In this document: piece after piece, positions 9,287-60,976 of the stretch
How positions within the stretch are numbered: position 1 is the first letter of the stretch
Layout of the letters: every line of letters begins with the position of its first letter
Assembly (NCBI GenBank): GCA_036006525.1
Contig: DASYPP010000062.1
Span: forward strand, 10,958 to 74,957
Source: Gemmatimonadales bacterium
Lineage (GTDB): Bacteria; Gemmatimonadota; Gemmatimonadetes; Gemmatimonadales; GWC2-71-9
DNA length: 64,000 nt
Reading direction: 5' to 3'
Notes under the pieces: generated by a model
What the model was told of the DNA's origin: nothing
The model's database searches: none
What the model saw: the letters and a program-made list of their open reading frames with translations, nothing else
Program-made: the position numbers and the translations under genes

Positions 9287-9395
9287 GTGACAAGTAACAA
9301 GTGACAGGTGACAAGGGCGCGGTGTTGTTGAGTGACGTGCCGAGCTGAGGGACCATACAGCGATTACTTGTCACTTGTCACCTGTCACTTGTCAC
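9287..9395. repeat. tandem-repeat-armed hairpin (heptamers GTGACAA x4 / TTGTCAC x4, ~51-nt loop) between the greA stop and the GroES-like start
   Basis: Left arm 9287-9315 is gtgacaagtaacaagtgacaggtgacaag. Right arm 9367-9395 is cttgtcacttgtcacctgtcacttgtcac. The right arm overlaps the last base of the greA TAG. Confidence 0.85.
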
Positions 9396-9868
9396 TAAAC
9401 TTTGGTCTGGTCGTGTACAGTCTGCAGTTCAACGATGCGGAGCCGGCGGGCCCCATTGGGCAGCCGGAGATCCACTTCGTCGCCCATCTTTCCGTCCTTG
9501 AGCGCCCGGCCCAGGGGAGAACCCACCGAAATGTGGCCCAGCTCGAAGTCCGCCATCTCGCCCAGTACCAGCACGTAGGTCTCGGTTTCGTCGGTCACCA
9601 GGTCAATCACCGTGACCTTGGAGCCCAGCCCGACCCGGTCGGTCGGGGAATGGCTGGACATTTCGCCCAGCTGGCTCAGGCGCTGATGCAACTGGCCGAG
9701 CCGCGCCTGGACAAACTGCTGCCGCTCCAGCGCCGCCTTATATTCGGAATTCTCCCGGAGATCGCCCAGCTCGACTGCCGTGGCGATGGCCTGGGGAAGA
9801 GTCACGTTGAGTTCATGGCTGAGCTGTTCTACTTCCCGGCTCAGCTTTTCACGCATTTCCTGAATCAT
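9395..9868 (-). CDS. greA: transcription elongation factor GreA
   Basis: 157 aa. N-terminal coiled coil with the conserved acidic tip (ELGDLRENSEYKAAL) and a C-terminal FKBP-like domain (VSVGSPLGRALKDGKMGDEV). Confidence 0.92.
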   Translation of the reverse strand: MIQEMREKLSREVEQLSHELNVTLPQAIATAVELGDLRENSEYKAALERQQFVQARLGQLHQRLSQLGEMSSHSPTDRVGLGSKVTVIDLVTDETETYVLVLGEMADFELGHISVGSPLGRALKDGKMGDEVDLRLPNGARRLRIVELQTVHDQTKV

Positions 9869-9891
9869 GTTTCGAGTAACGAAAAAGGTTG

Positions 9892-9917
9892 ACCCGGACG
9901 GGTAATTCCGCCCGGGT
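9892..9917 (-). promoter_or_regulatory. stem-loop plus U-run in the greA leader (attenuator/terminator-like)
   Basis: Minus-strand RNA ACCCGGGCGG-AAUUAC-CCGUCCGGGU forms a 10-bp stem with one G-U pair. It is followed by CAACCUUUUUCG and ends 23 nt before the greA ATG. Confidence 0.35.
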
Positions 9918-10216
9918 TCGAAGGGGTGTCACGAAACCTAAAATAGCACTAAACTTGAGAACGGGTGAGTGGCAGCCGAATACCCGATCCCTTGCTGGTT
10001 GCAGTGGTTGAGGATCCCGCAGTAACTGCCCAGATAGTCTACACTAATTCTGCCGCAGCCAAGATCTTTGTAATCAATTGTGAATAAACGATATACATAC
10101 GTAGTCCAGTCTGCTTGAAACTGAGCAAGTATTGTACAGTGGCCCCCTGGCCACTGGCACGTGACCTGCCCTTCTGGGACCTGGCTGGTTTTCGGTCCCT
10201 TGATCTGAGCGACACC

Positions 10217-11197
10217 ATGACGGTTTCCCGATTCCACGCGCTGTTCGCCTTTGCCGGCCTGATGGGGGCTGTTGTGCCCCGGGGCGGCGAAGTTGGCCGT
10301 CCGGTGGTGAAGCCCTCGGTGGTGATCCTGGGGTCCCGGTCGAGCGTCGGGTATTGGTCGCCCCAGATTCTTCGGGCAGAAGGGGACTTGAACGGTTCCC
10401 TGTACCGCTCCTTCGCGCTGGTCATTCCCGATTCCCTGCTGAACGCCCGGGAACGCCGGTACATGGCGTGGGAGATCGCCGACATTTTCCGCTGGCAGGC
10501 TGACTTCAGCCGGGAAATCCGTCCCGGGGATCATTTCCGGCTCATCTTCGAACGACTGATCTCGCGGGACGGGGAAGTCCGTTACGGCCGGCTGCTTGCC
10601 GCCGAAATCGTGCTTCGGGGCCAGCCGATCATGGCCTACGAATTCGACGATGCCCAGGGCCGGACCGCTTTCTACGACAGTGAAGGCCATTCGCTGCATC
10701 GCGACTTCCTCCGGGTTCCGGTGGAGTTCAAGCGGATCTCCTCTGAGTTCGGCTCCCGGTTTCATCCCATCCTTCAGCGCTGGCGCAATCACGAAGGCAT
10801 CGACTACGCGGCCAGCGCCGGCAGTCCCGTCATGTCGGTCGGCGATGGCGAAGTGATACGCGCCGGCAGCGCGGGCGGTTACGGTAACCTGGTGGAGATC
10901 GCTCACGGAAACGGCCTGGTCACCCGGTACGCGCACCTGCGCGGGTTCGCCCGCGGTATCCGGCGCGGTGCGCGGGTAACCCAGGGGCAGGTGGTAGGCT
11001 TCGTCGGCAAGACCGGCCTCGCCACGGGTCCCCACCTGCACTTCGAGTTCCGGGTCCGCGGCATCGCGCGGGACCCCAACGAGATCACCACCGGGGCAGG
11101 CGCCTCGGTGGCTTCACCCCAGTTGTCGTCGTTCCTCGGCACGGTGGCCGAGTACGGTCGGCTGCTCCAGATGGAGCCCTCGCTCGCCAGCCGCTAA
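10217..11197 (+). CDS. M23 family metallopeptidase (peptidoglycan DD-endopeptidase-like)
   Basis: HEGIDYAA, YGNLVEIAHGNG and GPHLHFEF give the HxxxD/HxH zinc site of LytM/M23. The start was put at ATG 10217 (signal-like MTVSRFHALFAFAGLMGA). The listed ORF starts at 10115, so the start is uncertain. Confidence 0.85.
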   Translation: MTVSRFHALFAFAGLMGAVVPRGGEVGRPVVKPSVVILGSRSSVGYWSPQILRAEGDLNGSLYRSFALVIPDSLLNARERRYMAWEIADIFRWQADFSREIRPGDHFRLIFERLISRDGEVRYGRLLAAEIVLRGQPIMAYEFDDAQGRTAFYDSEGHSLHRDFLRVPVEFKRISSEFGSRFHPILQRWRNHEGIDYAASAGSPVMSVGDGEVIRAGSAGGYGNLVEIAHGNGLVTRYAHLRGFARGIRRGARVTQGQVVGFVGKTGLATGPHLHFEFRVRGIARDPNEITTGAGASVASPQLSSFLGTVAEYGRLLQMEPSLASR

Positions 11198-11353
11198 AAC
11201 CATCAGCGAATAGCGAAACACGTCCTGTTCGAATCTTTTTCATCAACCCAACGGTATGATGACGCGTACAATCATCAGTTTGGCGCCCCCCGTCGTGCGG
11301 CCGTTCCTTCGCGCGACTCGCTACGCGCTGCTGGCTACTTCCCTGGAGTGTTC

Positions 11354-12670
11354 ATGCTTTCTCGCGCAGGATTTGCCTGCCTGGTGCTGCCGCTTGTGGT
11401 CGCTCCGCTCGCGGCGCAGGCAGGTTCACCCGCAGGTCCTGTCCCGGTAAGCCGGCTCGAGGCTCGCCGCGCCGCATTGCTCGACCGAATCGGGACCGGC
11501 GTGGCGATCGTTCGCTCGGCCGACGAGAAGGACATCGAAAGTGACTATCCCCAGGACAGCGACTTCCGCCAGGACAACGACTTTTTCTACCTGACGGGAC
11601 TGGAAACGGCCGGCTCCTGGCTGGTGCTGGTCGCCCATGACAGCCTGCCCGACCAGGTCATCCTCTATATCCCCGCGCGCGACAGTCTCCAGGAGGCGTG
11701 GACTGGTCCCACGCTGGGGCCCGGGCCCGACGCCACCAGCCTGACCGGCATCGCGGACACCAGGCCCAGTCGCTCGGCGAAGAAGGAGATTCGTGACCTG
11801 TTGAGCACACCGGGGACGATCTTCTACTATCCCCGCTACGGCGGCCAGAAGGACTCGACCTTACTCCGCGAGCTGGGCGTCAACGATTCGCTGGGCCGGG
11901 CCATCCAGAAGCGCAACCTGCGGGCGCTGACCGGGAATCTCCGGCTCATCAAGGACGACGACGAGATCGCCCGGATGCGCCGCGCCATCGATATCACGGC
12001 AGAAGCCGAGCGGGAGGCGATGAAGTCGGCGCGGCCTGGCATGTGGGAGTATGAGCTGGAAGCGCTGATCGAGTACACCTTCCGCCGCCATGGCGCCGAG
12101 CGGGTCGGCTTCCCCACCATCGTGGGTACCGGGATCAACTCCACCACGCTGCACTACGACAAGGGCCGCCGGCAGAGCCAGGCGGGCGACCTGGTGGTAA
12201 TGGATATCGGGGCGGAATACGGCTACTACACGGCGGATGTCACACGCACCATTCCCATCTCGGGGCACTTCACCCCGCGGCAGCGGGCGCTGTACGACCT
12301 GGTGCTCGGCACCCAGCAGGCCGCCATCGACTCGGTGCGTCCCGGCATCACCATCGGCCAGCTCAACGGGATCGCACGGAACTACATGAAGCAGCACTCC
12401 GGCGACCTCTGCGGCGGCGAATCGTGCGACCGGTATTTCATCCACGGGCTTTCGCACTGGCTGGGAATGGACGTGCACGACGTGGGGGACTACTCCAAGA
12501 AGCTGGCGCCCGGGATGGTCCTGACGGTGGAGCCGGGGATTTACATCCCGGCCGAGAAAACCGGCATCCGGATCGAGGATGACGTGCTGGTTACCGGCAC
12601 GGGGTACGACCTATTGTCGAAGGGGGCTCCCCGCACCGCATTGGAAATTGAAGCTCTGATGAGACAATAG
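11354..12670 (+). CDS. Xaa-Pro aminopeptidase (M24B family) with signal peptide
   Basis: N-terminal signal (LVLPLVVAPLAAQA), an aminopeptidase-P N-domain, then the pita-bread fold with metal-ligand contexts DLVVMDIGAEYGYYTADVTRT, HGLSHWLGMDVHD, LTVEPGIY and IRIEDDVLVT. GTG 11348 is an alternative start. Confidence 0.88.
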   Translation: MLSRAGFACLVLPLVVAPLAAQAGSPAGPVPVSRLEARRAALLDRIGTGVAIVRSADEKDIESDYPQDSDFRQDNDFFYLTGLETAGSWLVLVAHDSLPDQVILYIPARDSLQEAWTGPTLGPGPDATSLTGIADTRPSRSAKKEIRDLLSTPGTIFYYPRYGGQKDSTLLRELGVNDSLGRAIQKRNLRALTGNLRLIKDDDEIARMRRAIDITAEAEREAMKSARPGMWEYELEALIEYTFRRHGAERVGFPTIVGTGINSTTLHYDKGRRQSQAGDLVVMDIGAEYGYYTADVTRTIPISGHFTPRQRALYDLVLGTQQAAIDSVRPGITIGQLNGIARNYMKQHSGDLCGGESCDRYFIHGLSHWLGMDVHDVGDYSKKLAPGMVLTVEPGIYIPAEKTGIRIEDDVLVTGTGYDLLSKGAPRTALEIEALMRQ

Positions 12671-12750
12671 GGACGAGCGGTGAAGGCGGACGAGGCGGTC
12701 ACAATCAGAGAAGCCCGACCGCCCCGACCGCCTTGTCCGCCCCGACCGCC
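12671..12750. repeat. tandem-repeat-armed hairpin (9-mers) filling the whole convergent gap; probable bidirectional terminator
   Basis: Left arm ggacgagcggtgaaggcggacgaggcggtc (12671-12700). Right arm cccgaccgccccgaccgccttgtccgccccgaccgcc (12714-12750). ggcggac(g/a)aggcggtc pairs 15/16. The element abuts TAG 12668-70 and TAA 12751-53. Confidence 0.8.
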
Positions 12751-13233
12751 TTAGCGCCGAGCGCCTTTCCAGGCTTCTATGTTGCGCTCGATCTGCCGGC
12801 AGTGCACATCCAGGTGGCTGGCGTAGGTCTCCAGCCACTTCTCCATTCCATAGGTCGGGTGTTCCGAGTGGTGGCCGGTCCGCCGCCACGCCGCTTCAGA
12901 AAGGCCCTGGAGCAGGGGCACGGTATTGGCCCGGACCGCGTCGATGGTAGCCAGGGCCGGTTCCAGCGGCAGCTCGTGATAGTTCAGGGTCCTGGCCCAT
13001 TCGTCCTGGTCATAGCCCATGATCTGCGGATCCTTCTCGGCCAGGAGGTAGCGAACCCGCATGTGGGCATTGGCCTCGCTGTCCGCGCAGTGGACGATGA
13101 TCTCGTGGACCGACCATTTGCCCGGCGCGGGGCGCCATTTCATGGCTTCCGGCGGAACTTTGGCGAGGGCCTGGCGCAGTTTGGCCGGGCCTTCGGCGTA
13201 TTGACGGACCTGGGCTTCGCGGGAGGCTGGCAT
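12751..13233 (-). CDS. DinB family protein
   Basis: 160 aa with a four-helix DinB pattern and a His triad context (WSVHEIIVHCADSE ... ASHLDVHCRQI). Confidence 0.85.
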   Translation of the reverse strand: MPASREAQVRQYAEGPAKLRQALAKVPPEAMKWRPAPGKWSVHEIIVHCADSEANAHMRVRYLLAEKDPQIMGYDQDEWARTLNYHELPLEPALATIDAVRANTVPLLQGLSEAAWRRTGHHSEHPTYGMEKWLETYASHLDVHCRQIERNIEAWKGARR

Positions 13234-13280: not shown

Positions 13281-13419
13281 AAGGTGGGGCAGGATGAGGC
13301 AAGGTGGGGGAAGGAGAGCCAAAGGGAGCGGGGGTACGCCCGGGACCCTCTAAAACGCCTAAGGCAAGTCCTTGCCTCACCTTGACCCACTCTGCCTCGC
13401 TCTATCACCTTCTTGACTC
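13281..13419. repeat. tandem-repeat-armed hairpin (10-mers, 5+5 units) in the divergent dinB / ctaC region
   Basis: Left units: aaggtggggc aggatgaggc aaggtggggg aaggagagcc aaagggagcg (13281-13330). Right units: ccttgcctca ccttgaccca ctctgcctcg ctctatcacc ttcttgactc (13370-13419). The arms are imperfectly complementary. Confidence 0.7.
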
Positions 13420-13441
13420 GGGGCCTTCCACAGGCTATCCT
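13413..13441 (+). promoter_or_regulatory. candidate promoter of the cta operon (TTGACT-N17-TATCCT)
   Basis: -35 at 13413-18 overlaps the last unit of the repeat arm. -10 at 13436-41, 55 nt upstream of the ctaC ATG. Confidence 0.3.
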
Positions 13442-13495: not shown

Positions 13496-14599
13496 ATGCG
13501 CCTCCGGAAAATCATTTCCGGGCCTGCCTTCCGGGCATGCTTTCCGCTCATTCTGCTGCTGGTACTCGCGGGCTGTTCCTCGCGGGACTATCCCCAGTCC
13601 ACGCTGGATCCGAAGACCGATTTCACCCGGATGATCGACCACATCTTCATGACGACGGTCTGGTGGGCCGTCGTGGTGTTTGTGCTGGTCGAGGGTGCAT
13701 TGGTGTTCGCGATCTTCAAGTTCCGGGGGAAGCCGACCGATCCGGAACCGGTGCAGACTCACGGGAATACCGCGGTGGAGGTCGTCTGGACCATCATCCC
13801 GGCCGTGATCCTGGCCCTGATCGCGGTCCCCACGATCCGCGGCATCTTCGAAACCTCCGAGATTCCCACCGACGCGGTGCGGGTCGAGGTGATCGGGCAC
13901 CAGTGGTGGTGGGAGTTCCGCTATCCCGACCAGAAGGTGGTGACGGCGAACGAGTTGCACGTGCCGAGCGGGAAGAAGATCGCCCTGTATATGACGACGG
14001 CGGACGTCCTGCACAGCTTCTGGATGCCGCAGCTGGCGGCCAAGCGTGACGTCTTCCCCCGGCGGGCGACGACGCTGTGGTTCACGGCACCGGAGCCGGG
14101 GAACTTCACCGGGCAGTGCGCCGAGTTCTGCGGCATCCAGCACGGCCGCATGGGCTTCCGGGTATTCGTAGACACCCCCGGGGATTTCGACGCCTGGGTA
14201 GCGGACCAGCAGGTCGGCTCCCCGATGATGAACGGCGGAGTCGTGGCGCCCGACAGCAGCCGTCCGGCCGATTCGGCCACGGCCCAGGCGAAGGCCGCCC
14301 ACGACAGCCTGATGGCGGCGGGCAACGCGCTGTTCGTGTCCGGCGGCTGTATCGGGTGCCACGCGATGGTCGGCACTCCGATGGCGGGGGTGATGGCTGG
14401 CCTGGTGGGTCCCAACCTGAGCCACGTGGGAAGCCGCACCACCATCGTCGCCAACCTGCTGGAGAACACCCCGGAGAACGTGGCGAGGTGGCTGCACGAT
14501 CCCCAGGCGGTGAAGGCGGGCACGCTGATGAAGCTCCCTCGGAAGCTGACCGAGGATGAGATCAAGACCCTGGTCGCGTATCTCGAGGCGCACAAGTAG
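13496..14599 (+). CDS. ctaC: cytochrome c oxidase subunit II with fused C-terminal cytochrome c domain (caa3-type)
   Basis: ATG 13496 with lipobox LVLAGCSS, two TM helices, CuA site (HSFW ... CAEFCGIQHGRM) and a C-terminal heme-c CIGCH...M. Confidence 0.92.
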   Translation: MRLRKIISGPAFRACFPLILLLVLAGCSSRDYPQSTLDPKTDFTRMIDHIFMTTVWWAVVVFVLVEGALVFAIFKFRGKPTDPEPVQTHGNTAVEVVWTIIPAVILALIAVPTIRGIFETSEIPTDAVRVEVIGHQWWWEFRYPDQKVVTANELHVPSGKKIALYMTTADVLHSFWMPQLAAKRDVFPRRATTLWFTAPEPGNFTGQCAEFCGIQHGRMGFRVFVDTPGDFDAWVADQQVGSPMMNGGVVAPDSSRPADSATAQAKAAHDSLMAAGNALFVSGGCIGCHAMVGTPMAGVMAGLVGPNLSHVGSRTTIVANLLENTPENVARWLHDPQAVKAGTLMKLPRKLTEDEIKTLVAYLEAHK

Positions 14600-14716
14600 G
14601 TAAGAAGTAAGCAGTAAGAAGTAAGCGGGAAGGATTTCGAGATTGCGAGGAGTTGGCAGCATAAGCGACGATGTTGGCTACCAGTCCCGCTTACTGCTCA
14701 CTGCTTACTGCTCACG
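14597..14716. repeat. tandem-repeat-armed hairpin (heptamers GTAAGAA/GTAAGCA x4 versus CTTACTG/CTCACTG x4, ~54-nt loop) between ctaC and ctaD
   Basis: Left arm (ta)ggtaagaagtaagcagtaagaagtaagcggga starts at the ctaC TAG. Right arm tcccgcttactgctcactgcttactgctcac (14685-14715). 27 of 31 positions are complementary. Confidence 0.85.
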
Positions 14717-16557: not shown

Positions 16558-16582
16558 AGGGACAGGTCTGAGACCTGTCCCT
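16558..16582 (+). other. perfect 11-bp hairpin between ctaD and ctaE
   Basis: agggacaggtc-tga-gacctgtccct, 4 nt after the ctaD TAA. No U-tract. Confidence 0.5.
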
Positions 16583-18456: not shown

Positions 18457-18483
18457 TCGGCTAGTCCCAGCTGGTCGACCATT

Positions 18484-18582
18484 CCTCACGAAAAGCACGA
18501 ACTCCACGAAAACCGCGAAAGAAACGCTTCTTCATGGAATCCCTGTTCGTGGCTTCCGCGGGATTTCGTGACTTTCGTGAGG
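18484..18582. repeat. tandem-repeat-armed hairpin (CACGAAA-type 9-mers) between convergent ctaG and the ykgJ-like gene
   Basis: Left arm cctcacgaaaagcacgaactccacgaaaaccgcgaaagaaacg. Right arm cgtggcttccgcgggatttcgtgactttcgtgagg. The outer 10 bp are perfect. The right arm is inside the last codons of the ykgJ-like ORF. Confidence 0.75.
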
Positions 18583-19191
18583 ATATGTTATTGCTGCGGC
18601 GATCGTCGTTTCATAGTCCGTGCGCAGTGGCGAGCCAAACAGCTGCATCGATGCCGCCTCGAGGCAGGCCGATTCCACGTCTTCCAGGCTCTCCAGGCCG
18701 AACGGCTGGGCGGCCAGTCCGGCATACCCGGGGAATTCGTTCTGGATCGGACAAGCGTTCTCGATGATCCGGTCTCCCCGGGTTTGCATGGATAGTCCCA
18801 TGGTCCGGCAGACCAGCGGGCGATACTGGTAAATCAGGCAGGCGCCGTCCTCATCGAGGCAGGGGCAGGGCGCATCGGCCAGCCGGTCGGCCAGCGCATC
18901 GAACCGGTCCTCGCCGATGTCCCCGATCGCTCCGCCGTCCCAACCCGGTTCCGCTTCCCGCATTCGAGTCACCAGTGCAGCGGCCCGCTGCCGTACGGCG
19001 CGCTGCTGTTCATGGGGCAGGGCCTGGACGCCGGCCCGCACCAGGAGAACATCCGCCGTGCTGATGTCGAAGGGTCCGTGACAGCAGGCGGCGCAGCCCG
19101 GGCGACACGGAATGACGCCAGGAAATTGATCCCGGGCGGACTGGAACCATTGGTCAAGCTGCTCCAGCAGCTCGCGGTAGGCCTGCACCAC
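18532..19191 (-). CDS. YkgJ-family cysteine-cluster protein (UPF0153)
   Basis: CRPGCAACCHGPF plus a downstream CPCLDEDGACLIYQYRPLVCR, the YkgJ/zinc-iron chelating Cys cluster. The start was put at GTG 19191 because the upstream part of the 18532..19371 ORF overlaps the DUF423 gene. The last ~17 codons are encoded by a repeat arm. Confidence 0.7.
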   Translation of the reverse strand: MVQAYRELLEQLDQWFQSARDQFPGVIPCRPGCAACCHGPFDISTADVLLVRAGVQALPHEQQRAVRQRAAALVTRMREAEPGWDGGAIGDIGEDRFDALADRLADAPCPCLDEDGACLIYQYRPLVCRTMGLSMQTRGDRIIENACPIQNEFPGYAGLAAQPFGLESLEDVESACLEAASMQLFGSPLRTDYETTIAAAITYPHESHEIPRKPRTGIP

Positions 19192-19208
19192 GGGAGACTC
19201 GGGAATGG

Positions 19209-19577
19209 CTACGCCCGGCTCGCGGCGAGCGCGAGACAGATCCACCCGGCCAGCAACGCCACGCCGCCGAACGGCGTGACCAGGCCGAAACGGCCGATTC
19301 CGGTGAGGGCGATCAGGTAGAGGCTCCCGCTGAAGAGAACGGTACCGAGGAGGAACAGGCGGCCGGCCCAAAGTGCCGCATTATTGGGAGAGCGGCTCAC
19401 CAGCCAGGCGACCGCGAGGAGCGCGAGGGCGTGATACATCTGGTAGCGAGCGCCGGTTTCAAAGGCCTGGAGGTGTTCGGGGGAAATGCGATCGCGCAGT
19501 GCGTGAGCGCCGAAGGCCCCGGCGAGCACCGAGACGAAACCGGAGACTGCTCCGGCCCTGAGAAAAAAGCGATCCAA
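19209..19577 (-). CDS. DUF423 domain-containing membrane protein (YgdD/TMEM256-like)
   Basis: 122 aa with four TM helices. GAFGAHAL and YQMYHALALL are the DUF423 hallmarks. TTG start. Confidence 0.85.
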   Translation of the reverse strand: MDRFFLRAGAVSGFVSVLAGAFGAHALRDRISPEHLQAFETGARYQMYHALALLAVAWLVSRSPNNAALWAGRLFLLGTVLFSGSLYLIALTGIGRFGLVTPFGGVALLAGWICLALAASRA

Positions 19578-19612: not shown

Positions 19613-19733
19613 GCAACATCCAACGCCGAGGCGCAGGGCCACGCAGAGTCATTCGCAGAGGAAAACTATTTCATGAGAATGAATCCTGGTCTCCGCGATA
19701 GCTCAGCGCCCTCTGCGACTCAGCGTTGGATGT
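19613..19733. repeat. GCAGAG-type hairpin element with termini GCAACATCCAACGC / GCGTTGGATGT
   Basis: Left arm gcaacatccaacgccgaggcgcagggccacgcagagtcattcgcagagg. Right arm ctccgcgatagctcagcgccctctgcgactcagcgttggatgt. The right arm overlaps the stop and last codons of the 19703..20431 gene. Confidence 0.8.
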
Positions 19734-20431
19734 TTTTCTCCGCTTTCTCCACCAGCACGGGCTCGATTCGGCAATGGCCGGTCCGCCCACGCCGCCAGCG
19801 CGACAAGCAGAATCACTCCGCCAATGTCCGCGATGGCGATGGCCCTGATGCTGGGAGGTGGGGGGCCGAAGGTGCTTGCGACGAAGAGAGCCAGGAGCAA
19901 ACCCGCCAATACCGCGACCCGCCAGGTGATACCGCTCGAGCCGCGCGACCGCCACCGGAAATAGACGAAGAGTCCGGCGCCGAACAGCAGTAGCTCCACC
20001 GCCATGGTAGCGGGGATGCTCCGCCAGAGACCGAAGCCGTACTTGGTGGAGTCGTCACCCACCAGGGGGAGGTCACGAACGTGGACCACCAGATCGAGGA
20101 ACCAGTGGGACGCCACCACCAGTGCCACGACCAGCGCCTTGAGCCAATGATGCTTGCTGGTGTCGCGGGTGGGCCACGAGTACACGATAACGGCGGCCAG
20201 CAGGCCCCACCCGAACGCTGCGGCCAGGCTGTGGGTGATCGGGTAGGAAATGAACTCGATCTGGTTCCCCGGGGTCGGAGCGGGGACAATGGCGGCCCGC
20301 TCCCATCCGGTGAGCAGAAACACCCCCCACAGCAAATCAACCAGCGCGGTGGCGAAGAAGAGGGTAGCCAGCGAAAGCTTGGGTTCCACCCGCTTCATGC
20401 CGAATGCGACGCCGAAGTGTCCCAGGAACAT
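19703..20431 (-). CDS. polytopic membrane protein (possibly YdjM/metal-dependent membrane hydrolase-like)
   Basis: 242 aa with about 7 hydrophobic helices. Conserved-looking His residues (MFLGHFG, ITHSLA, ASHWFLDLVVH). The 3' end runs into the repeat element at 19613-19733. Confidence 0.6.
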   Translation of the reverse strand: MFLGHFGVAFGMKRVEPKLSLATLFFATALVDLLWGVFLLTGWERAAIVPAPTPGNQIEFISYPITHSLAAAFGWGLLAAVIVYSWPTRDTSKHHWLKALVVALVVASHWFLDLVVHVRDLPLVGDDSTKYGFGLWRSIPATMAVELLLFGAGLFVYFRWRSRGSSGITWRVAVLAGLLLALFVASTFGPPPPSIRAIAIADIGGVILLVALAAWADRPLPNRARAGGESGEKHPTLSRRGR

Positions 20432-27605: not shown

Positions 27606-27648
27606 GATGAACACCTGTATGTGAATGGTTATACAGCCTTCAGCTTCT

Positions 27649-27669: not shown

Positions 27670-27672
27670 TTG

Positions 27673-42124: not shown

Positions 42125-42152
42125 GCATTTTTCACCAGCAGGGAGCCGATCA

Positions 42153-44482: not shown

Positions 44483-44522
44483 CGTACATTAGGGCTCCGC
44501 CCTCCGACCAAGGCAATTCCCT

Positions 44523-47500: not shown

Positions 47501-50240
47501 GTTTACCGATGCCGAGGCGTGGATCACGGTGGAGCGGGAGGGACTGATCCAGCAGCGCCGGATGCGGCTTACCTCCGGCTCGACCATGCTGAAGCTCCCG
47601 ATCACCGAAGCCTTTGCGCCCAATGCCTACGTGGGGATCGTGGTGGCGCGGGGCCGGAGCGCGGCGCCGGGCCCGCTGGACGATCCGGGCCGCCCGACCA
47701 TGCGGGTGGGATATGCCCAGCTCCGGGTAACGCCGGAGATCAAGCGGCTGGCGCTGGAAGTCGAGCCGCTCAAGGTAGAGTACCGCCCGGGGGACACCGC
47801 GCGGGTGCGAATCCGGATGCGAGACGGCCGGGGGACCGGGCAGCAGGGCGAGGTCACCCTGTGGGCGGTGGACGAAGGAGTGCTGGCGCTCACCGGATAC
47901 CAGACGCCGGATCCGCTCGACCTGATCTACCGCGAACGCGGACTCGGCGTCCGCCTGGCCAGCAACGTCGTGACGGTTGCCCCCCAGGTGCCGGAGGGCG
48001 AGAAGGGGCAGCGTCACCCGGGCGGTGGGGGCGGCGGGGAGAACGCCGACATCCTGCGCTCGAGGTTCCAGACCACCGCGTTCTTCCTGGGTTCGGTGGT
48101 GACCGATTCCCTCGGTGTGGCTATTGCCCGGGCCAGGCTGCCGGACAATCTCACCACATTCCGGATCATGGCGGTCGCCGTGACCTCGGGAGACCGCTAC
48201 GGCAAGGGGCAGTCGAGCGTGCTGGTGACCCGGCCGCTCATTGCCCGGCCGGCGTTGCCGAGGTTCGTGAGAGCCGGGGATGATTTCACGGCGGGCGTCG
48301 TGGTAAACCAGCGGGCCGGCGGCACGCCCATGGCCACGGTCACGTCGCGCGCCCGCGGCGTGGAGCAGATCGGTGACTCCACTCAGCAGGCGACCCTGGA
48401 AGCCGGCCGGGGCCGCGAGGTCCGGTTCCATTTCCGCGGACTTGCCGGCGATACGGCGACTTTCCGGTTCCGTGTCAGCGGGGCGGGGGATTCCGACGCG
48501 GTGCAAACCAAGCTGCCGATACGCGAGGCGTTCCGGCCCCGCTTCCACACGGTCGCGGGCGTGCTCTACGATACGACGACCGCCGAATTCCAACTCCCCT
48601 CCGACATCGATCCGGACCGGTCCGAACTGCTGCTCAGTCTCGGCGCATCGCCGCTCAGCGTCATCAAGGGCGCGTTCCAATCGCTCCGAGTCTATCCCTA
48701 CTACTGCACCGAACAGATCTCCAGTTCCGCCCTCCCCCTGATCGCGCTGTACCAGGCCCAGCGGCGGACCGGGGCGGCCGACCTGGCGCCGAAGAACGCC
48801 AGGGCCGACATCGAGCTGGCGGTGGCCACCATCATCCGGCGGCAGCGGGAGGATGGCGGGATCGGTTACTGGAGCTCGTCGGACTGGACCACGCCCTGGC
48901 TCAGCGCCTACGCCGGCATCGTGCTGCTGGAGGCGCGGAGCGCCGGGATCGCCGTAAGCGATACCGCACTCCACAAGCTGGCGGACTACCTGAGCGATGC
49001 GATCGACAACGAGGAGCCGGTGTTCTCGCTGATTTCCTCCTGGTACGACAAGCGCACTCTTACCCTGGCCGAGCGCGTGGCGGCGGCTGACCTGTTGAGC
49101 CGCCTGGGCCGGCCCGATGTCGCCCAGGAGAACGAGCTGTTTCGCCTGGCGGCCCAGATGGACTGGGAAGACAGAACGCGGCTGGTGGAAGTGCTCTCCC
49201 GCCGCCGTGACAAGGCGCCGGCCCGGGTGCTGCTCAACGCGGTCATCGCACCGGTAAAAGTCGAAGGCCGGGTCGCGGTGGTCCCCGACTCGTTGGCCCG
49301 GGGCTTCTACTTCTACTCCCAGGTCCGGCCGACAGCGCAGCTGCTCCGGTCGGTGCTGGCCGTGGATTCGATCCATCCGCTGATCGGGCCACTGGTCGAG
49401 GCGCTGGTTGAGCAGGGCAGGAACGCGCGGCCCTGGGAATGGAACACCCAGGACTACGGGTCGGTGGTCTATGCGCTGGCCGCCTTTGAGCAGCGGCAGC
49501 GAGCCGCATCGGCCGGCGGGATCCTAGTCCGGTCGAACAACCGGGTACTGATCCGGGTGGATTCGCTGGGCGGCGTCCGGGACTCGAGCACCACGCTGCA
49601 CGGTTTGCTGGGCGCCGCCAGCGGACCCCAGCGCCCGCTCCGGGTCTCATTGAGCGGCGGCCATGGCAACACCCCGGTCTACTACTACCTCACGGTCAGG
49701 GAAATTCCGCTTAACCGGCCGGTGCGACCGGACGACAACGGCATCAGCGTCGAGCGCTGGTACGAGTCGTACGCCGACGGCAAACCGATCGTCGAGGTGA
49801 ACGAAGGTGACCTGGTGCGGGTGCGGCTCCGGATTACGGTGCCCAACACCCGGCACTTCGTCATCCTGGACGATGCCCTGCCGGCTGGCCTCGAGGCCAT
49901 TGACCTGTCGCTCCGGACCGCGGCGCCACCCGGCATCGGTACCACGATGCCGGAGGAGGCCCAGCCGGACGAGGGTTCCGAGCAGGGGCCCGGCTACCAC
50001 TGGTACTACGGCAGCTGGGACTCGGGCTGGTGGTCACCGTTCGATCATCGCGAGCTCCGGGACGACCGGGTGCTCTACTTCGCGGCGATCCTCTGGAAAG
50101 GCAGCTACACGGCGACCTATGTCGCCCGGGCGACCACACCAGGGGTCTTCATGCGCCCCCCGGCCCATGCCGAGGAGATGTATAACCCGGATGTGCACGG
50201 GCGGAGCGATGGAGGGATTTTCACAGTAAACAGACGGTAG
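44523..50240 (+). CDS. alpha-2-macroglobulin family protein (bacterial, thioester-containing, YfhM-like)
   Basis: 1905 aa, multi-MG-domain beta-rich sequence. Thioester motif YYCTEQ (Cys codon 48705-48707). Followed directly by pbpC, the canonical partner. Confidence 0.92.
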   Translation: MHPARLLLLLGVTAYLADPGDPLHVLRATPSGEAGPGTVITVSFDRPVAGSLDRSVDPATIFQVSPQVAGRLEWRDPITIRFTPARLLIPGTTYTVTIRPDFEAMDGSRLDQPYGFSFRVRGPEVLNSSIVSSGNSSYLKPDARFALVASAPVDPVLVSRLAYLEFEADCPVRVVRLKATGQRGVTDQDTWEFREAGGWERNRALDSLRRVVELTPVARLPRGCSGYLVVPPVLDEESDTGKPRRFALATYGDFRLKRTACSYPECPTGPIDLEFSTPVSGAEVLRRVRLQPGVAFTLSDSTEERASWTLDAELKPRTGYAIVVDPAIRDVFGQSLTGNPVGTMVTTGYAPTVDYEYGRMVVERVGFRTLAVRHINVDTLVVLIAPVPDSLEAEFLARSEWGWDDLWAKIAPGASTRRIAVKNEQDHARIYGVQLPVSNAGRPGSRTLLAVRITSPQLPPVQKGADRPMGPLALVQVTDLGVHAKIGVQEGAVWVTGLSDGMPRTGAQVTLRDLKGRLLASGATDSTGLVRLRNYQAVPNGYEEGEESGGNLEAFIAVRYGTDRSLVGINQYDPDLSPWRFDVGGAWGEERLPVAAAVFTERGIYRPGEPVYTKAIIRRGSLGSLRAPARTDSINWVFSDRENGVLFQKTVAPSRFGTSDQTLRLPADLPLGTYNVTVQYKWLNKWRDVAQTSYRVAEYRPPEFLVNISADSGTRYPGDKIRTQLEARYLFGAPMARAALTWTARLSPITGWEFQVPGSEGYYTGETGYWWDDSNQQPGVTILATGTDTLDAAGRFVLEVPITQVPKGRAARATVEAVVTDVNRQAVGAAASVIVHPAEFYIGAKPLGKDYFWVAGSSQAIAVVALTPEGRRVSNVKVRGSVIRREWHQVHRERDGMAEQIGDWVMDTVASCNVTTADSPVSCTFTPPSGGIYIVSLTAEDRKGRSVLTTFARWASGTDWVPWNDENQFKMDVIADRERYSVGDTATVLFASPFTDAEAWITVEREGLIQQRRMRLTSGSTMLKLPITEAFAPNAYVGIVVARGRSAAPGPLDDPGRPTMRVGYAQLRVTPEIKRLALEVEPLKVEYRPGDTARVRIRMRDGRGTGQQGEVTLWAVDEGVLALTGYQTPDPLDLIYRERGLGVRLASNVVTVAPQVPEGEKGQRHPGGGGGGENADILRSRFQTTAFFLGSVVTDSLGVAIARARLPDNLTTFRIMAVAVTSGDRYGKGQSSVLVTRPLIARPALPRFVRAGDDFTAGVVVNQRAGGTPMATVTSRARGVEQIGDSTQQATLEAGRGREVRFHFRGLAGDTATFRFRVSGAGDSDAVQTKLPIREAFRPRFHTVAGVLYDTTTAEFQLPSDIDPDRSELLLSLGASPLSVIKGAFQSLRVYPYYCTEQISSSALPLIALYQAQRRTGAADLAPKNARADIELAVATIIRRQREDGGIGYWSSSDWTTPWLSAYAGIVLLEARSAGIAVSDTALHKLADYLSDAIDNEEPVFSLISSWYDKRTLTLAERVAAADLLSRLGRPDVAQENELFRLAAQMDWEDRTRLVEVLSRRRDKAPARVLLNAVIAPVKVEGRVAVVPDSLARGFYFYSQVRPTAQLLRSVLAVDSIHPLIGPLVEALVEQGRNARPWEWNTQDYGSVVYALAAFEQRQRAASAGGILVRSNNRVLIRVDSLGGVRDSSTTLHGLLGAASGPQRPLRVSLSGGHGNTPVYYYLTVREIPLNRPVRPDDNGISVERWYESYADGKPIVEVNEGDLVRVRLRITVPNTRHFVILDDALPAGLEAIDLSLRTAAPPGIGTTMPEEAQPDEGSEQGPGYHWYYGSWDSGWWSPFDHRELRDDRVLYFAAILWKGSYTATYVARATTPGVFMRPPAHAEEMYNPDVHGRSDGGIFTVNRR
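48705..48716 (+). other. thioester motif codons (Cys-Thr-Glu-Gln) of the alpha-2-macroglobulin
   Basis: tgc acc gaa cag, in frame with 44523 (offset 4182 = 3 x 1394), within RVYPYYCTEQISSS. Confidence 0.8.
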
Positions 50241-50266
50241 GATGGTAGGACGGTAAGACGGTAGGG
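50234..50266. repeat. single-arm 8-mer array (ACGGTAGG-type x4) spanning the macroglobulin stop codon
   Basis: acggtagg atggtagg acggtaag acggtagg. TAG 50238-40 lies inside unit 1. No complementary arm precedes pbpC. Confidence 0.65.
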
Positions 50267-50299: not shown

Positions 50300-52564
50300 A
50301 TGCTCAAACGCGTCATGTGGTGCCTGGTGGCCGGCGTGGTGCTGGCCACTGTCGGCGCGTTCACCTATGTCCTGTGGCCGTTGCCAGGCGGATTGGTGAC
50401 CCGGTCGGCGGGGACCGGTGTCCGGCTGGAAGACCGGCATGGGCTGGTGCTTCGCACGACTCGGGCTGAGGACGGGAGCCTGCAGCGCTGGGTGGCCCTG
50501 GGCGACATCGATCCCGATATCATCGCCGCATTCCTGGCGGTGGAGGATCATCGATTCTATCGCCATTCCGGGGTCGATCTTCGCGCGATCGGGCGGGCGA
50601 TCCGGGACAACCTGCGCGGTGGCCGGGGACTGTCGGGCGGATCCACGATCACCATGCAGCTGGCGCGGCTTTACTACGGAACTCCGCGGAGTGTCTCCGG
50701 AAAAGTGCGCCAGGCGCTCCAGGCGTGGCGGCTGGAATGGCACCTCGACAAGGCGACCATCCTGGAGCAGTACCTGAACCGGGTGCCGCTGGGCCAGGGA
50801 GCAGTCGGCGTACCCGCCGCGGCGGCACTCTACTTCAATCGCGGCGCCACCGACATCAGCCTGGGGCAGGCCGCGCTGCTGGCAGGGCTGGCCCGCGCAC
50901 CGTCATCCAACAATCCGCTGGTCTCGCAGAGCGGGGCCGCCGGGCGGCGCCAGGTCGGGCTGATGCGATTGGCGGCGGTTGGCTATGCCGCGGCGGCGGA
51001 CATCCAGCGGGCCGGCCAGGAGCCACTACTGGTCCCGGCTCGGAGCGGTTCGTTTCAGGCCCCGCACTTCACCTCGCGACTGCTCGCGCACGAGAGCACC
51101 GTGCCCCCCGACGGGGTGCTGCACACCTCGCTCGACCTGGGGCTGCAGACCGCGCTGGAAGCCGAGGTCCGGCACACGGTGGACCTGCTCAAGACATCGG
51201 GCGCGCGCCAGGCGGCGGCGGTCGTGCTGGACAACCGGACGGGTGAGATTCTCGCGTGGGTTGGGTCTCCCGATTTCTGGGCCGACACGGCCGGCCAGGT
51301 CGACATGGTGATCTCGCCCCGGCAGCCGGGCTCGGCGCTCAAGCCGTTTCTCTATGGGCTGGCCTTCGATCGAGGCTATTCGCCGGCGTCGGTGCTGCCC
51401 GACGTCGCGCACGCTTACGCGACCTCGCTGGGTCCGTATCGTCCCCGTAACTACGACCGCCGGTTCCACGGACCGGTGCGGGCCCGGGAGGCGCTGGCCA
51501 GCTCCTACAATGTGCCGGCGGTGGAGCTGACCGACCGACTGAGTGCCGCATCGCTACTCGATGTGCTGCACCGGGCGGGCTTCGAGAGCCTGGCGCGCAC
51601 CCCGGGGTACTATGGGCTGGGACTCGCGCTCGGCAATGGCGACGTCTCCCTGCTCGAACTGGCCAACGGGTATCGCGCATTGGCCAACGGCGGCGAATGG
51701 CAGCCCACTACGTGGCGGAAGGCCGGCGATCCGCGGCAGACGACGACCGGGGAACCGCGCCGGGTGATGACCCCGAGCTCGGCCGCCCTGGTGACGGACA
51801 TTCTATCCGATCCGGTGGCGCGGATCCCCGGGTTCGGCCTGGAGACGCCGTTCGACTTTGCGTTTCCGGTCGCCGCCAAGACCGGCACCAGCCGGCACTT
51901 CACCGATAACTGGGCGGTGGGGACGACCCGGAACTTCACGGTGGCGGTATGGGTCGGGAACTTCAATGGCCAGCCCATGGATCGGGTGAGTGGAATTACC
52001 GGCGCCGGCCCGCTGCTGCACCGCGCCGTCCTGCTCACTGCCCAGCGGTATCCGCCCGGAGTGCTTACCCGGCCCGAGGACGCCGGGGCGGTCCCGGTGA
52101 CGATTTGCGCGCTATCGGGTCTCCGGGCCGGCCCGCGGTGTCCCCACCAGGTGGAATGGTTCGCGCTGGGCACGGCGCCGGAGCGGGAATGCGACTGGCA
52201 CCGGCCCGGCGGCCTGGCCCTACCGGCGGAGTACCAGGAGTGGGCGGATCAGACCCACGCGGTGCATGCGGAGTTCAGTGCCGGGCTGACGAGCGCCGGC
52301 GATTCGTCAAGCGGCGGTTTCAGGATTTCTTCTCCCCGGGATGGTGATGTGTACCAGGTCCCACCCGGCGTCGAGCCCCGCTACGCAACGCTGTCCCTGC
52401 GCGCGTCCGGCGCCGGTGCCGATGGGCGCGTCAGCTGGTCGATCAACGGTCGGCCATACCGGGAACGACGCTGGGGCCTGGAGCCGGGCCGGTACGTCTT
52501 CGTGGCCCGGACGCCGGGCGGGTCGGTGGACAGCGTACAGATCGAGGTAGCTCGAGATCGGTAG
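50300..52564 (+). CDS. pbpC: penicillin-binding protein 1C (bifunctional glycosyltransferase/transpeptidase)
   Basis: GT51 motifs (AVEDHRFYRHSGVD, GGSTITMQLAR) and transpeptidase SxxK (PGSALKP), SYN and KTGTS. C-terminal PBP1C-specific beta domain. The start is ambiguous (TTG 50279, GTG 50291, ATG 50300). Confidence 0.9.
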   Translation: MLKRVMWCLVAGVVLATVGAFTYVLWPLPGGLVTRSAGTGVRLEDRHGLVLRTTRAEDGSLQRWVALGDIDPDIIAAFLAVEDHRFYRHSGVDLRAIGRAIRDNLRGGRGLSGGSTITMQLARLYYGTPRSVSGKVRQALQAWRLEWHLDKATILEQYLNRVPLGQGAVGVPAAAALYFNRGATDISLGQAALLAGLARAPSSNNPLVSQSGAAGRRQVGLMRLAAVGYAAAADIQRAGQEPLLVPARSGSFQAPHFTSRLLAHESTVPPDGVLHTSLDLGLQTALEAEVRHTVDLLKTSGARQAAAVVLDNRTGEILAWVGSPDFWADTAGQVDMVISPRQPGSALKPFLYGLAFDRGYSPASVLPDVAHAYATSLGPYRPRNYDRRFHGPVRAREALASSYNVPAVELTDRLSAASLLDVLHRAGFESLARTPGYYGLGLALGNGDVSLLELANGYRALANGGEWQPTTWRKAGDPRQTTTGEPRRVMTPSSAALVTDILSDPVARIPGFGLETPFDFAFPVAAKTGTSRHFTDNWAVGTTRNFTVAVWVGNFNGQPMDRVSGITGAGPLLHRAVLLTAQRYPPGVLTRPEDAGAVPVTICALSGLRAGPRCPHQVEWFALGTAPERECDWHRPGGLALPAEYQEWADQTHAVHAEFSAGLTSAGDSSSGGFRISSPRDGDVYQVPPGVEPRYATLSLRASGAGADGRVSWSINGRPYRERRWGLEPGRYVFVARTPGGSVDSVQIEVARDR

Positions 52565-52587
52565 AATATCACCCGGGTGATATTCTA
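52562..52587 (+). terminator. perfect 26-bp palindrome at the pbpC stop (terminator or operator)
   Basis: tagaatatcaccc/gggtgatattcta. It includes the TAG, is AT-rich at the ends and is followed by ttcaagttctt. Confidence 0.5.
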
Positions 52588-58988: not shown

Positions 58989-59023
58989 CGGGGTCGTTGA
59001 CAACTGCGCGGCTGCCGAGCTTT

Positions 59024-59169
59024 GCCACATCCAACGCGGAGACGCAGAGGCGCAGAGTATCGCAGAACAAATACTGTTTGTCTCTTCTGGTGTTCGGTTT
59101 CCTTGGCGTAAGGTCAGTAGACCAGCTCCGCGAATCTCGGCGCCTCCGCGGCTCTGCGTTGGATGTTGC
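59024..59169. repeat. GCAGAG-type hairpin element (same family as 19613-19733), ~57-nt loop, convergent gap
   Basis: Left arm gccacatccaacgcggagacgcagaggcgcagagtatcgcagaac. Right arm ctccgcgaatctcggcgcctccgcggctctgcgttggatgttgc. The terminal 14-mers pair 13/14. It ends 5 nt from TGA 59175-77. Confidence 0.85.
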
Positions 59170-59174
59170 AGTTC

Positions 59175-60851
59175 TCAATTGCTCGTCTGGTACCCGGGGC
59201 CGCGCACAAATCTCCCCGGCATGGCCCCGGTATGTTCTCCGTTCTTGAGGACCTGCACGCCGTTCACGAACACGTCCACCATACCGGTGGCGTACTGGTG
59301 AGGCTGCTCGAAGGTCGCGTGGTCCTGGATAGTGGCCGGGTCGAACACCACAACGTCCGCGAAGTTCCCCGGCACCAGGCTGCCGCGCCGCTGGATCCGG
59401 AGGTTGGACGCCGGCAGCGAAGTGAGCCGGCGGATTGCCTCCGGCAACGGCACCAGGTGCTCATCGCGCACGTACCTGGCCAGCAGCCGGGCGAAGTTCC
59501 CGTAAGTCCGGGGGTGCGGGTTGCTGTTGAGGAAGACGCCTTCGGTCGAGTTGGAGGCGCCATCCGACCCGAAACTCACCCAGGGTAGCTGCACTTGCTT
59601 CCGCACGTTGTCTTCCGACATCGTGAAAAAGACGCAATCGACCCGGCTGTCGTCCTGGATTACCAGGTCCATGGCTGTCTCTTCGGGTGAGGTGCCCCGC
59701 ATCGCCGCGACCTGGGCCAGCGTCCTCCCCGTGAGGTAACGCAGGCTGTCGGTCTTGAACCCGGCGAGCAGGATGCCGCCGGGCCCGCCGCTGTTGGCGA
59801 AGAAGTTGTCGTAGTCGCCGCCTTCGCCCCGCATCTCGCGGCCCAGCCGGACGCGAATCGCCGGGTCCTTGAGCCGTTCCACCCAGGCCCGGTGGCCGCC
59901 TTCCTGGACCCAGGTCGGCATCGTCGCATCGAGCCCCGTGCTGCTGGCGGGGTAGGTGTACATGTCGGCGGTGATCGCCAGCCCACGGGCCCGTGCCGCC
60001 TCCACCCGCGCGATGAGCGTGTCCATCTTGCCCCAGTTGGGCCGCCCCGAGGCCTTCACGTGATAGATCTCGGCGCGGATACCCGCCTCCCGCGCGATGG
60101 TCATCAATTCGTCCAGCGCTTCAAGCAGGTGGCGCCCTTCGTCCCGCATGTGGGAGATGTACATCCCGTTGTATTGCGCCGCGACCCGCGACATCGCGAT
60201 CAGCTCGTCGGTGCGGGCATAGTTGGCCGGCGCATAGATCAGCGAGGATCCGACACCCAGGGCGCCTTCTTCCATTGCCCGGCGCACCAGCGCCTCCATT
60301 CGAGTCAGCTCCGACGCCGTGGGCGGGCGGTTATCCCAGCCGATCACGTTCTCCCGGATCGTCGCCGCGCCGACGAAGGAGGCGACGTTGGTTGAGATCC
60401 CCCGGTGCTCCAGCCAGCTGAGGTACTCTCCCAGCGTGGTCCAGGACACGTCGTACTTGATGTCGCCCTGCTCGAGCGGCGCCAGCTTCTTCATCGAATC
60501 ACTGAGCGGGCCCATTGATTCGCCCTCGCCCATGACCTCGAGGGTCACTCCCTGCCGGATATCGCTTTGGGAACGCCCGTCCTGGATCAGCGACTCGTTG
60601 GCCCAGCTCAGCATGTTGATGAACCCGGGAGCCACGGCCAGGCCCCGGGCGTCCACCTCGGTCGTGCCTCGTCCACCGACTGCTCCGACCTGCACAATGC
60701 TATCTCCCCTGATCGCGATATCGCCGACAAACGGCGCGCCGCCCCGGCCATCGTAGATGGTGCCGTTCCTGATGACGATATCGAACTCGGCCCTTGGCAG
60801 TGAACCTAGGGCGAGGAAGGGCAAGAGCGATAGAAAAAGGAGTCGGCGCAT
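59175..60851 (-). CDS. N-acyl-D-amino-acid deacylase (D-aminoacylase)-family amidohydrolase, secreted
   Basis: Signal peptide and 558 aa with a D-aminoacylase-like layout (VIRNGTIYDG...; GMYISHMRDEG; SFGSDG). The usual N-terminal HxH and Cys metal ligands appear replaced (GFINMLSW; GEGESMGP), suggesting a divergent subfamily. Confidence 0.85.
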   Translation of the reverse strand: MRRLLFLSLLPFLALGSLPRAEFDIVIRNGTIYDGRGGAPFVGDIAIRGDSIVQVGAVGGRGTTEVDARGLAVAPGFINMLSWANESLIQDGRSQSDIRQGVTLEVMGEGESMGPLSDSMKKLAPLEQGDIKYDVSWTTLGEYLSWLEHRGISTNVASFVGAATIRENVIGWDNRPPTASELTRMEALVRRAMEEGALGVGSSLIYAPANYARTDELIAMSRVAAQYNGMYISHMRDEGRHLLEALDELMTIAREAGIRAEIYHVKASGRPNWGKMDTLIARVEAARARGLAITADMYTYPASSTGLDATMPTWVQEGGHRAWVERLKDPAIRVRLGREMRGEGGDYDNFFANSGGPGGILLAGFKTDSLRYLTGRTLAQVAAMRGTSPEETAMDLVIQDDSRVDCVFFTMSEDNVRKQVQLPWVSFGSDGASNSTEGVFLNSNPHPRTYGNFARLLARYVRDEHLVPLPEAIRRLTSLPASNLRIQRRGSLVPGNFADVVVFDPATIQDHATFEQPHQYATGMVDVFVNGVQVLKNGEHTGAMPGRFVRGPGYQTSN

Positions 60852-60900
60852 TATCAGCCTGTGCGTAGGGATCCAGTGCGATTGAATCTTTGGCGCGCTT

Positions 60901-60976
60901 CACCGCAGAGCCGCGGAGCGCGCAGAGGTTTCGCAGAGGACAAACTTACCGCCTTACCGCCGTACCGCCCTGCCGC
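60901..60976. repeat. chimeric double array: GCAGAG-type left arm followed by CTTACCGC 8-mers x4, no complementary arms
   Basis: caccgcagagccgcggagcgcgcagaggtttcgcagaggacaaa is homologous to the left arms at 19613 and 59024. It is followed by cttaccgc cttaccgc cgtaccgc cctgccgc, which abuts TAG 60977-79. Confidence 0.7.

Follow-up and report, generated by a model that had tools for sequence, protein, structure and literature searches.

Intergenic hairpins with tandem-repeat arms in a Gemmatimonadales bacterium: a candidate superfamily of extragenic palindromic repeats

Gemmatimonadota are abundant soil bacteria and, to our knowledge, their molecular genetics is almost nonexistent. We analyzed 64,000 nucleotides of DNA from a Gemmatimonadales bacterium (GenBank assembly GCA_036006525.1, contig DASYPP010000062.1, positions 10,958 to 74,957; G+C content ~65%), hereafter called the window, in which a preliminary description had pointed out eleven hairpins whose two arms are themselves short tandem-repeat arrays. 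All eleven hairpins proved to be real features of the sequence, and the same architecture recurs in other Gemmatimonadota. The reading we favor, to which we give about an even chance, is that each locus is a member of one superfamily of small extragenic palindromic repeats, specific to Gemmatimonadales, which behave like repetitive extragenic palindromic (REP) sequences and REPINs, or like miniature inverted-repeat transposable elements (MITEs). The class would then be previously undescribed and Gemmatimonadales-wide, and the kind to which it belongs, extragenic palindromic repeats, is already known.

An ungapped inverted-repeat scan recovered 11 of the 11 loci, with arms of 21–44 nt and, for the ungapped cores, loops of 12–76 nt. 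Inverted repeats with a score of at least 12 numbered 37 in the window, whereas 30 dinucleotide shuffles of the window averaged 4.4 and never exceeded 8, and those with both arms periodic numbered 6 compared with 0.23 in the shuffles. Folding of the loci with ViennaRNA against shuffled controls, as the preliminary description had suggested, gave minimum free energies (MFE) of −24 to −76 kcal/mol and strongly negative z-scores (one strand or, more usually, both reaching −3.8 to −11). When all intergenic gaps of the window were folded, z ≤ −4 was reached only where repeat-armed elements sit, and the other gaps lay between approximately −3.5 and +2.7. Tandem Repeats Finder (TRF) independently detected reverse-complementary paired arrays at 9286/9366, 14600/14688, 30489/30539, 39049/39090, and 42049/42096. 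The elements measure 75–150 bp, occur in the window about once per 6 kb, and occupy most of its longer structured gaps. Sequence inspection and a terminator scan placed T-runs behind a few hairpin ends only, and the initial impression that most elements lack U-tracts was correct. Two metagenome contigs (L081 and L082) match window positions 3129–12873 with 99.93% identity and zero indels, spanning two of the hairpins. Because these independent assemblies reproduce the two hairpins, the structures are not an assembly artefact.

Units of 7–10 nt had been ascribed to both arms of every element. Periodicity is clear at the loci starting at 9287, 12671, 14597, 18484, 30483, 39051, and 42046, and in the right arm of that at 42654; it is moderate at 13281 (10/20-mers with 70–82% matches). 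The description therefore fits most loci, but not 19613 and 59024, where periodicity is weak or irregular (GCAGAG spaced 8–12 nt), nor the left arm of 42654, which has two units only.

The hairpin at 9286–9396 pairs (GTGACAA)x4 with (TTGTCAC)x4 and fills the minus-strand gap from greA to a cpn10-like gene (TRF, inverted-repeat scan, z −5.9/−7.2), the greA stop codon falling within 'unit 0' of the array. Nine-mers of GGCGGWCGR and CCGACCGCC form the hairpin that fills the convergent pepP/DinB gap (12671–12750; fold, inverted-repeat scan). Ten/20-mers of AAGGTGGGGC and AGGRTGAGGC build the element of the divergent DinB/ctaC gap (13281–13419; fold), whose right end reaches into TTGACT (13413), predicted as the −35 hexamer of ctaC. 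Two hairpins belong to a GTAAGC family: 14597–14716 in the ctaC–ctaD gap, with 4+4 heptamers (TRF, fold), and 42654–42764 in a convergent gap, with two left and five right units (TRF, z −11/−9.5). The CACGAAA family is represented in the convergent gap 3′ of ctaG (18483–18583; fold, inverted-repeat scan) and in another convergent gap, which it fills (39041–39133; TRF, fold, inverted-repeat scan). Irregular GCAGAG units characterize the ACATCCAACGC...GCGTTGGATGT family at 19613–19734 and, in a convergent gap, at 59023–59170 (both fold and inverted-repeat scan). The remaining hairpins consist of (GGACTAA)x6 and (TTAGTCC)x5, filling a co-directional minus-strand gap (30482–30577; TRF, z −10/−9), and of (GGGAATGT)-type 8-mers immediately 3′ of the stop codon of an EamA-family gene (42046–42129; TRF, fold).

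The preliminary description had also proposed a scan of relatives. The nearest CtaD in a species-representative genome collection, 87% identical, belongs to an uncultured Gemmatimonadales metagenome-assembled genome (MAG), and the nearest matches are mostly from Gemmatimonadota. Applied to 80 ctaD-centred loci from the genome collection, a strict detector of complementary array pairs found the same architecture 18 times in 696 kb of Gemmatimonadota DNA (2.6 per 100 kb) and once in 775 kb from other phyla (0.13 per 100 kb), an approximately 20-fold difference; the window itself contains 5 such pairs in 64 kb (7.8 per 100 kb). Relatives use units such as GCGGGGC, GGGGCTA, GGTGAAC, GGGACAT, and GGCGGAC within the same architecture, often in other gaps. 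The window has 5 dimers of a GTRARC heptamer, the Gemmatimonadota loci have 16, and the controls none. The architecture may extend beyond a single phylum. Single cases of purine-first hairpins with periodic arms were seen outside Gemmatimonadota at L075 1162–1235 (an Opitutae MAG) and L039 20663–20797 (a Rokubacteria MAG), for example TTCACAGGAGGTAACGGAGGAAACAGAG. Searches of Rfam returned no match at the gathering score, and the sub-threshold matches were eukaryotic miRNA hairpins only. A search of the available literature found nothing relevant on Gemmatimonadota repeats, terminators, REPIN/RAYT, or prokaryotic foldback elements.

Unit sequences had been reported to differ from locus to locus. 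Several unit types indeed coexist, but three pairs of loci share sequence. The elements at 14597 and 42654 have AGTAAGCGGGA...TCCCGCTTACT in common, CACGAA units are common to 18484, 39051, and a locus of the relative L001 (13667–13730), and 19613 and 59024 have the same 20-nt ends. When metagenome contigs were scanned for exact matches to the GTAAGC core, 74 stretches were obtained (L092–L165), including ~25 high-GC contigs with (GGTRAGC)n arms. Seven (GGTRAGC)n copies, five of them from one metagenome, align in their ends GGGAACTGCAAC/GTTGCAGTTCCC, their arms, and the loop motif CCATTGATC, and their flanks differ; the loop of the element at 42654 holds CCATTGCGAT, which is near this motif. 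At least three copies of the family lie on a single 3.4-kb contig, and three families have two copies each in the 64 kb of the window. Sequence shared at unlinked loci indicates that these are dispersed repeat families conserved across the order. The same scan also returned, in ~16 of the 74 stretches, an unrelated small palindrome (GTCATTCCCGC-GTAAGCGGGAATCC..GGATTCCCGCTTAC-GCGGGAATGAC; contig G+C 0.37–0.70), which was retrieved by chance because it contains the GTAAGCGGGA core.

Comparison with close relatives had been recommended as well, in order to look for polymorphism in presence and unit number, and both were found to vary. The right arm of the 12671 element comprises four units in the window and two in a 91% relative (L084), the 13281 hairpin is one 10-mer shorter in L091, and arm lengths are often unequal. 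These differences support the view that the elements evolve by slippage, with gain and loss of units. Neighbouring units are up to 100% identical (30489–30524). As to presence, gene boundaries gain, replace, and lose elements at the level of species and genera. The 13281 element is conserved in four relatives, including L084, L085, and L091, and absent in L001. For the ctaC–ctaD element, L091 has an ortholog with 4+4 units, L001 retains a degenerate version, and L002–L012 lack it, their gap measuring 6–25 nt. The GTGACAA hairpin of the greA gap has as its counterpart a hairpin of GAGTAGC units in L085 and one-armed purine-rich arrays in L091, L001, and L003. In relatives whose DinB is 85% and 79% identical, pepP and dinB overlap by CTAG, compared with an 80-nt element between TAG and TTAG in the window; judged by these alignments, the gap may exist solely owing to the element. 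In a relative with 98% identical DinB (L083), this site 3′ of dinB is taken by an unrelated palindrome that is itself widespread and REP-like (TCATCCCGAGCGAAGCGAGGGATC ... GATTCCTCGGGCTTCGCCCTCGGAATGA).

The two arms differ in base composition in a consistent order. In 23 of 23 strict pairs, the 5′ arm is purine-rich (0.53–0.93) and the 3′ arm pyrimidine-rich. As this order reads identically on either strand, it belongs to the element itself. Counting all strong inverted repeats, the ratio of purine-first to pyrimidine-first is 10:1 in the window, 38:7 in the Gemmatimonadota loci, and 30:20 in other phyla. Even loci with two non-complementary arrays (window 60903–60978; L091 6150–6245) retain the purine-first order, and in one-armed arrays it is the sense strand that is rich in purines. 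Avoidance of Rho loading is a plausible cause, the leading arm being C-poor and the C-rich arm being paired once made. Another plausible cause is that the 3′ arm forms only a weak RNA:DNA hybrid, as pyrimidine-rich RNA generally does. Selection on the RNA of one particular strand received no support: the sense strand was favored by MFE at two of five co-directional loci only. RNAalifold detected compensatory changes at 0 of 39 pairs of the 13281 hairpin, with only four sequences in the alignment. The lack of strand preference and of covariation is compatible with the symmetry being kept at the level of DNA. A Shine-Dalgarno-like role of the purine-rich arrays was rejected, as their duplex energy with the 16S 3′ tail was weaker than that of composition-matched shuffles (mean z +1.0). 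A G-quadruplex reading was likewise rejected upon sequence inspection, for it suits the G-run families only and not GTGACAA, GTAAGCA, GGACTAA, and CACGAAA.

Taken as extragenic palindromic repeats, the elements could have arisen as follows. New copies would be generated by a copy-and-paste or recombinational process, and their arms would then expand and homogenise through replication slippage, the inverted symmetry being preserved at the DNA level with neither strand favored. Upon transcription, the elements would fold into hairpins of −40 to −75 kcal/mol that could block 3′ exonucleases and insulate the ends of convergent genes, and those inside operons would be read through. The purine-first polarity might act as a survival filter, retaining copies whose C-poor leading arm and promptly paired C-rich arm offer no loading site for Rho.

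Several observations weigh against this reading. Eight convergent gene pairs were called in the window on the basis of codon usage, three of which overlap by 14–21 nt, and each of the five non-overlapping convergent gaps holds an element that essentially fills it, as terminators might also do. No consistent target-site duplication was found, TAG...TAG flanks occurring at 12671 and 14597 only. Some arrays resemble the context of the upstream stop codon (TAGTGAC before (AAGTGAC)n; AAGTAG before (CGAGTAG)n in L091), which fits growth in situ rather than insertion. Neither a transposase nor another mobilising gene turned up, no genome-wide search having been made, and families at separate loci could spread by gene conversion instead of transposition. 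Empty and filled sites were also compared and no duplication was resolved, the empty sites being too diverged. A search for complementary arrays 200–4000 nt apart, as in a larger autonomous element, returned only neighbouring small elements in the limited sequence sampled. One gene flanked by two copies (L138 259–729) was read by eye as a pyrimidine-dimer glycosylase-like open reading frame (ORF) and not as a transposase. A bolder variant would have these elements be prokaryotic 'foldback' replicators, in which a stop-proximal heptamer expands by slippage, is copied back, and spreads without a classical transposase, the polarity stemming from transcription and Rho. We regard this variant as unlikely; if true, Gemmatimonadales would continually create and remodel intergenic DNA by a mechanism undescribed in bacteria.

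The preliminary description had inferred that the elements are U-tract-independent, often bidirectional terminators or 3′-end stabilisers. If dedicated to such a role, they would combine a long nascent-RNA hairpin capable of several pairing registers with a weak hybrid in the pyrimidine-rich 3′ arm. Their positions agree with such a role. In addition to the five filled convergent gaps, the elements begin 0–14 nt past the upstream stop codon and farther from the next start codon, fold stably on both strands, and are the only strongly structured gaps of the window. The purine-then-pyrimidine order means that the hybrid contains U/C-rich RNA whichever way transcription proceeds, and canonical hairpin-plus-T-run terminators are not enriched in the window (11 found, 7.2 expected). 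Long inverted-repeat terminators without a U-tail have reportedly been described by Ingham et al. in 1995 and Arnvig et al. in 2011 in Streptomyces, actinophage phiC31, and Mycobacterium tuberculosis (the 'TRIT' motif). These are like our elements in their high-GC genomes, their long imperfect hairpins at convergent ends, the missing U-tract, and the reuse of a motif as in TRIT, and they differ in having no tandem units, whereas here copies also lie within an operon and in divergent gaps. The mycobacterial RNA polymerase, on the other hand, is said to require a U-tract in vitro (attributed to Czyz and coworkers, 2014).

The wider distribution of the elements fits this role less well. The gaps they occupy in the window comprise five convergent, five co-directional (including ctaC–ctaD), and one divergent (DinB/ctaC). 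The ctaC–ctaD copy, conserved in the window and L091, lies 19 nt from the ctaD start, which leaves no room for a promoter, and it must therefore be read through. An exact look-up of CtaD as read from ATG 14671 gave no match; the actual start is probably 14734, 3′ of the hairpin. Copies also reside in divergent gaps (13281, which is conserved in four relatives, and L138 748–825). When enrichment by gene orientation was examined, as had been suggested, none emerged: the GGTRAGC family occupies co-directional, divergent, and convergent gaps in a ratio of 11:5:3, roughly as such gaps are available (202:83:44). Furthermore, the presence of an element in every convergent gap may be a case of reverse causation, because the relatives that lack the 12671 element do without a gap, the convergent pepP and dinB genes overlapping by CTAG. 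The sole alignable hairpin, available in only four sequences, showed no compensatory base change in any of its 39 pairs. Finally, a stop-proximal position is itself unfavorable, given that in E. coli the ribosome represses a terminator located a few bp past the stop codon (PMC4824070). We conclude that the elements are probably not primarily terminators and consider it improbable that they are dedicated to this function.

No more probable, in our view, is that the hairpins are neutral by-products formed in place, through slippage of a stop-proximal heptamer followed by inverted copying upon template switching (fold-back synthesis), with neither mobility nor function and with families that are convergent or gene-converted. 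This would explain why arrays begin at the upstream stop codon and resemble its context, and it accommodates the unequal arms, the perfectly identical adjacent units, the lack of a preferred strand in folding, and the lack of a target-site duplication. The existence of one-armed arrays with a purine-rich sense strand (window 27646, 44402, and 50232, as well as L001, L003, and L091) speaks for it as well. However, unlinked copies share non-periodic ends and a loop motif, so that slippage cannot have made them independently, and the GGTRAGC unit is conserved order-wide. Gene ends argue in the same direction. The elements had been described as intergenic, which is true for most; yet two ORFs read into an element. 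The last 17 codons of ORF 18532–19371(−) and the last ~10 codons of ORF 19703–20431(−) consist of hairpin sequence, and in both cases homology to relatives ends just before it, as it would following an insertion. The unrelated palindrome at the 12671 site of the 98% relative is a further point against growth in place.

It is very unlikely that the elements are binding-site arrays for a nucleoid, regulatory, or RNA-binding protein of Gemmatimonadales that reads short repeated motifs, GGTRAGC for instance, in either DNA or RNA: the order-wide conservation of this heptamer, the overlap of the conserved 13281 hairpin with the adjoining promoter −35 hexamer, and the −35-like GTGACA units speak for it, but units diverge widely among families (GGACTAA, CACGAAA, GGGAATGT, GCGGGGC), the unit of the greA gap switches between relatives while its position is kept, periods of 7–10 nt are out of helix phase and too short for one protein per unit, and complementarity to the anti-Shine-Dalgarno sequence is, if anything, depleted (mean z +1.0).

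The behavior of the elements is closest to that of REP/REPIN sequences and MITEs, and their anatomy to that of eukaryotic Foldback elements. Like the REP, BIME, and REPIN sequences of Proteobacteria (PMC3116915, PMC3733652), they are extragenic hairpins of REPIN size (~100 bp) with two inverted halves; they apparently come in multi-copy families, are inherited orthologously yet gained and lost, often lie at gene 3′ ends and in convergent gaps, and can be transcribed into stable hairpins. In contrast to the 20–40-nt imperfect palindrome of REP, their arms are 7–10-nt direct repeats without self-complementarity, and there is no consistent GTAG/CGTC head, GTAG being sporadic (left foot of 14597; GAGTAGC units of L085 and L091). 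Stems of 25–45 bp, many coexisting unit types, the strict purine-first polarity, and the phylum Gemmatimonadota set them further apart. A RAYT gene, which is associated with REP, was not seen here, no genome-wide search having been made. With bacterial MITEs (Correia/CREE, ERIC, RUP), they share their small size, non-coding nature, inverted ends (ACATCCAACGC/GCGTTGGATGT and GGGAACTGCAAC/GTTGCAGTTCCC), dispersal, and capacity to extend ORFs or supply promoter hexamers. They differ from MITEs in that no consistent target-site duplication was found, no related insertion sequence was identified in the limited sequence sampled, and the whole element is a hairpin of short tandem units. Eukaryotic Foldback elements (Drosophila FB, Galileo; PMC3688188) have inverted arms of tandem sub-repeats whose number varies by copy and arm, as observed here, but they are of kilobase scale and possess known transposases and target-site duplications. 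The likeness is architectural only.

Three other classes were discarded. Canonical intrinsic terminators (5–14 bp stem, 3–8 nt loop, U-tract) do not match stems of 21–44 nt, loops of 12–76 nt, few T-runs, and an unenriched consensus scan. CRISPR arrays do not match contiguous units of 7–10 nt without unique spacers. The integron attC reading (RYYYAAC...GTTRRRY) was considered for the ACATCCAACGC family, whose members at 19613 and 59024 carry ATCCAAC...GTTGGAT, the other families having no such cores; it was rejected because the flanking genes are syntenic in at least eight relatives and hence are not cassettes.

The elements reshape gene ends and promoter-proximal DNA and differ among close relatives. 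They are therefore relevant to genome annotation, as ORF ends are extended into them, to MAG assembly, and to strain typing, since unit number and presence vary. They also bear on the insulation of operons and convergent genes in a lineage without evident canonical terminators. The strict polarity could expose either a constraint imposed by Rho and RNA polymerase on the non-coding DNA that a compact high-GC genome tolerates, or the mechanism by which the palindromes are made.

Apart from the hairpins, TRF detected related arrays that had been overlooked in the preliminary description. Two adjoining non-complementary arrays at 60903–60978, (CCGCAGAG)x3–4 followed by (CTTACCGC)x4, are purine-rich and then pyrimidine-rich and probably represent a chimera of two elements. 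The one-armed array (GGTGCAG)x3 at 27646–27673(−) is purine-rich on the sense strand and lies between two minus-strand genes. A second, (GGATTGAGG)x8.6 with 94% matches at 44402–44485(+), precedes an alpha-2-macroglobulin gene (44538–50240, 1900 aa) by ~40–55 nt; young, long, and near the promoter, it could vary in length and tune expression. A third, (GACGGTAG)x4 at 50232–50266(+), occupies the 38-nt gap between this gene and pbpC, the next gene. The window otherwise encodes GreA, aminopeptidase P, DinB-family proteins, a caa3-type ctaCDE–ctaG cluster, the alpha-2-macroglobulin/PbpC pair, histidine kinases, and others.

Promoter-like hexamers were noticed within repeat units at two hairpins. 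GTGACA is followed at a distance of 18 nt by TATGGT within the 9287 hairpin (9352–9381(−)), directed towards the cpn10-like gene, and TTGACT is followed at 17 nt by TATCCT at 13413–13441(+), directed towards ctaC, the −35 hexamer lying in the last unit of the 13281 hairpin. The ctaD/ctaE gap contains a plain, perfect 12-bp hairpin (16558–16582, AGGGACAGGTCT-G-AGACCTGTCCCT) with neither periodic arms nor a T-run, in whose place L005 and L003 carry repeat-armed hairpins. Immediately 3′ of pbpC and upstream of a CHASE4 hybrid histidine kinase gene, a perfect loopless 13+13 palindrome (52562–52587, TAGAATATCACCC|GGGTGATATTCTA) resembles an operator more than a repeat-armed element. A 93-nt tandem duplication (43420–43596; 1.9 copies, 79% matches) in the OmpA/thrombospondin-type-3-repeat gene 42768–44300(−) is coding and unrelated to the hairpins.

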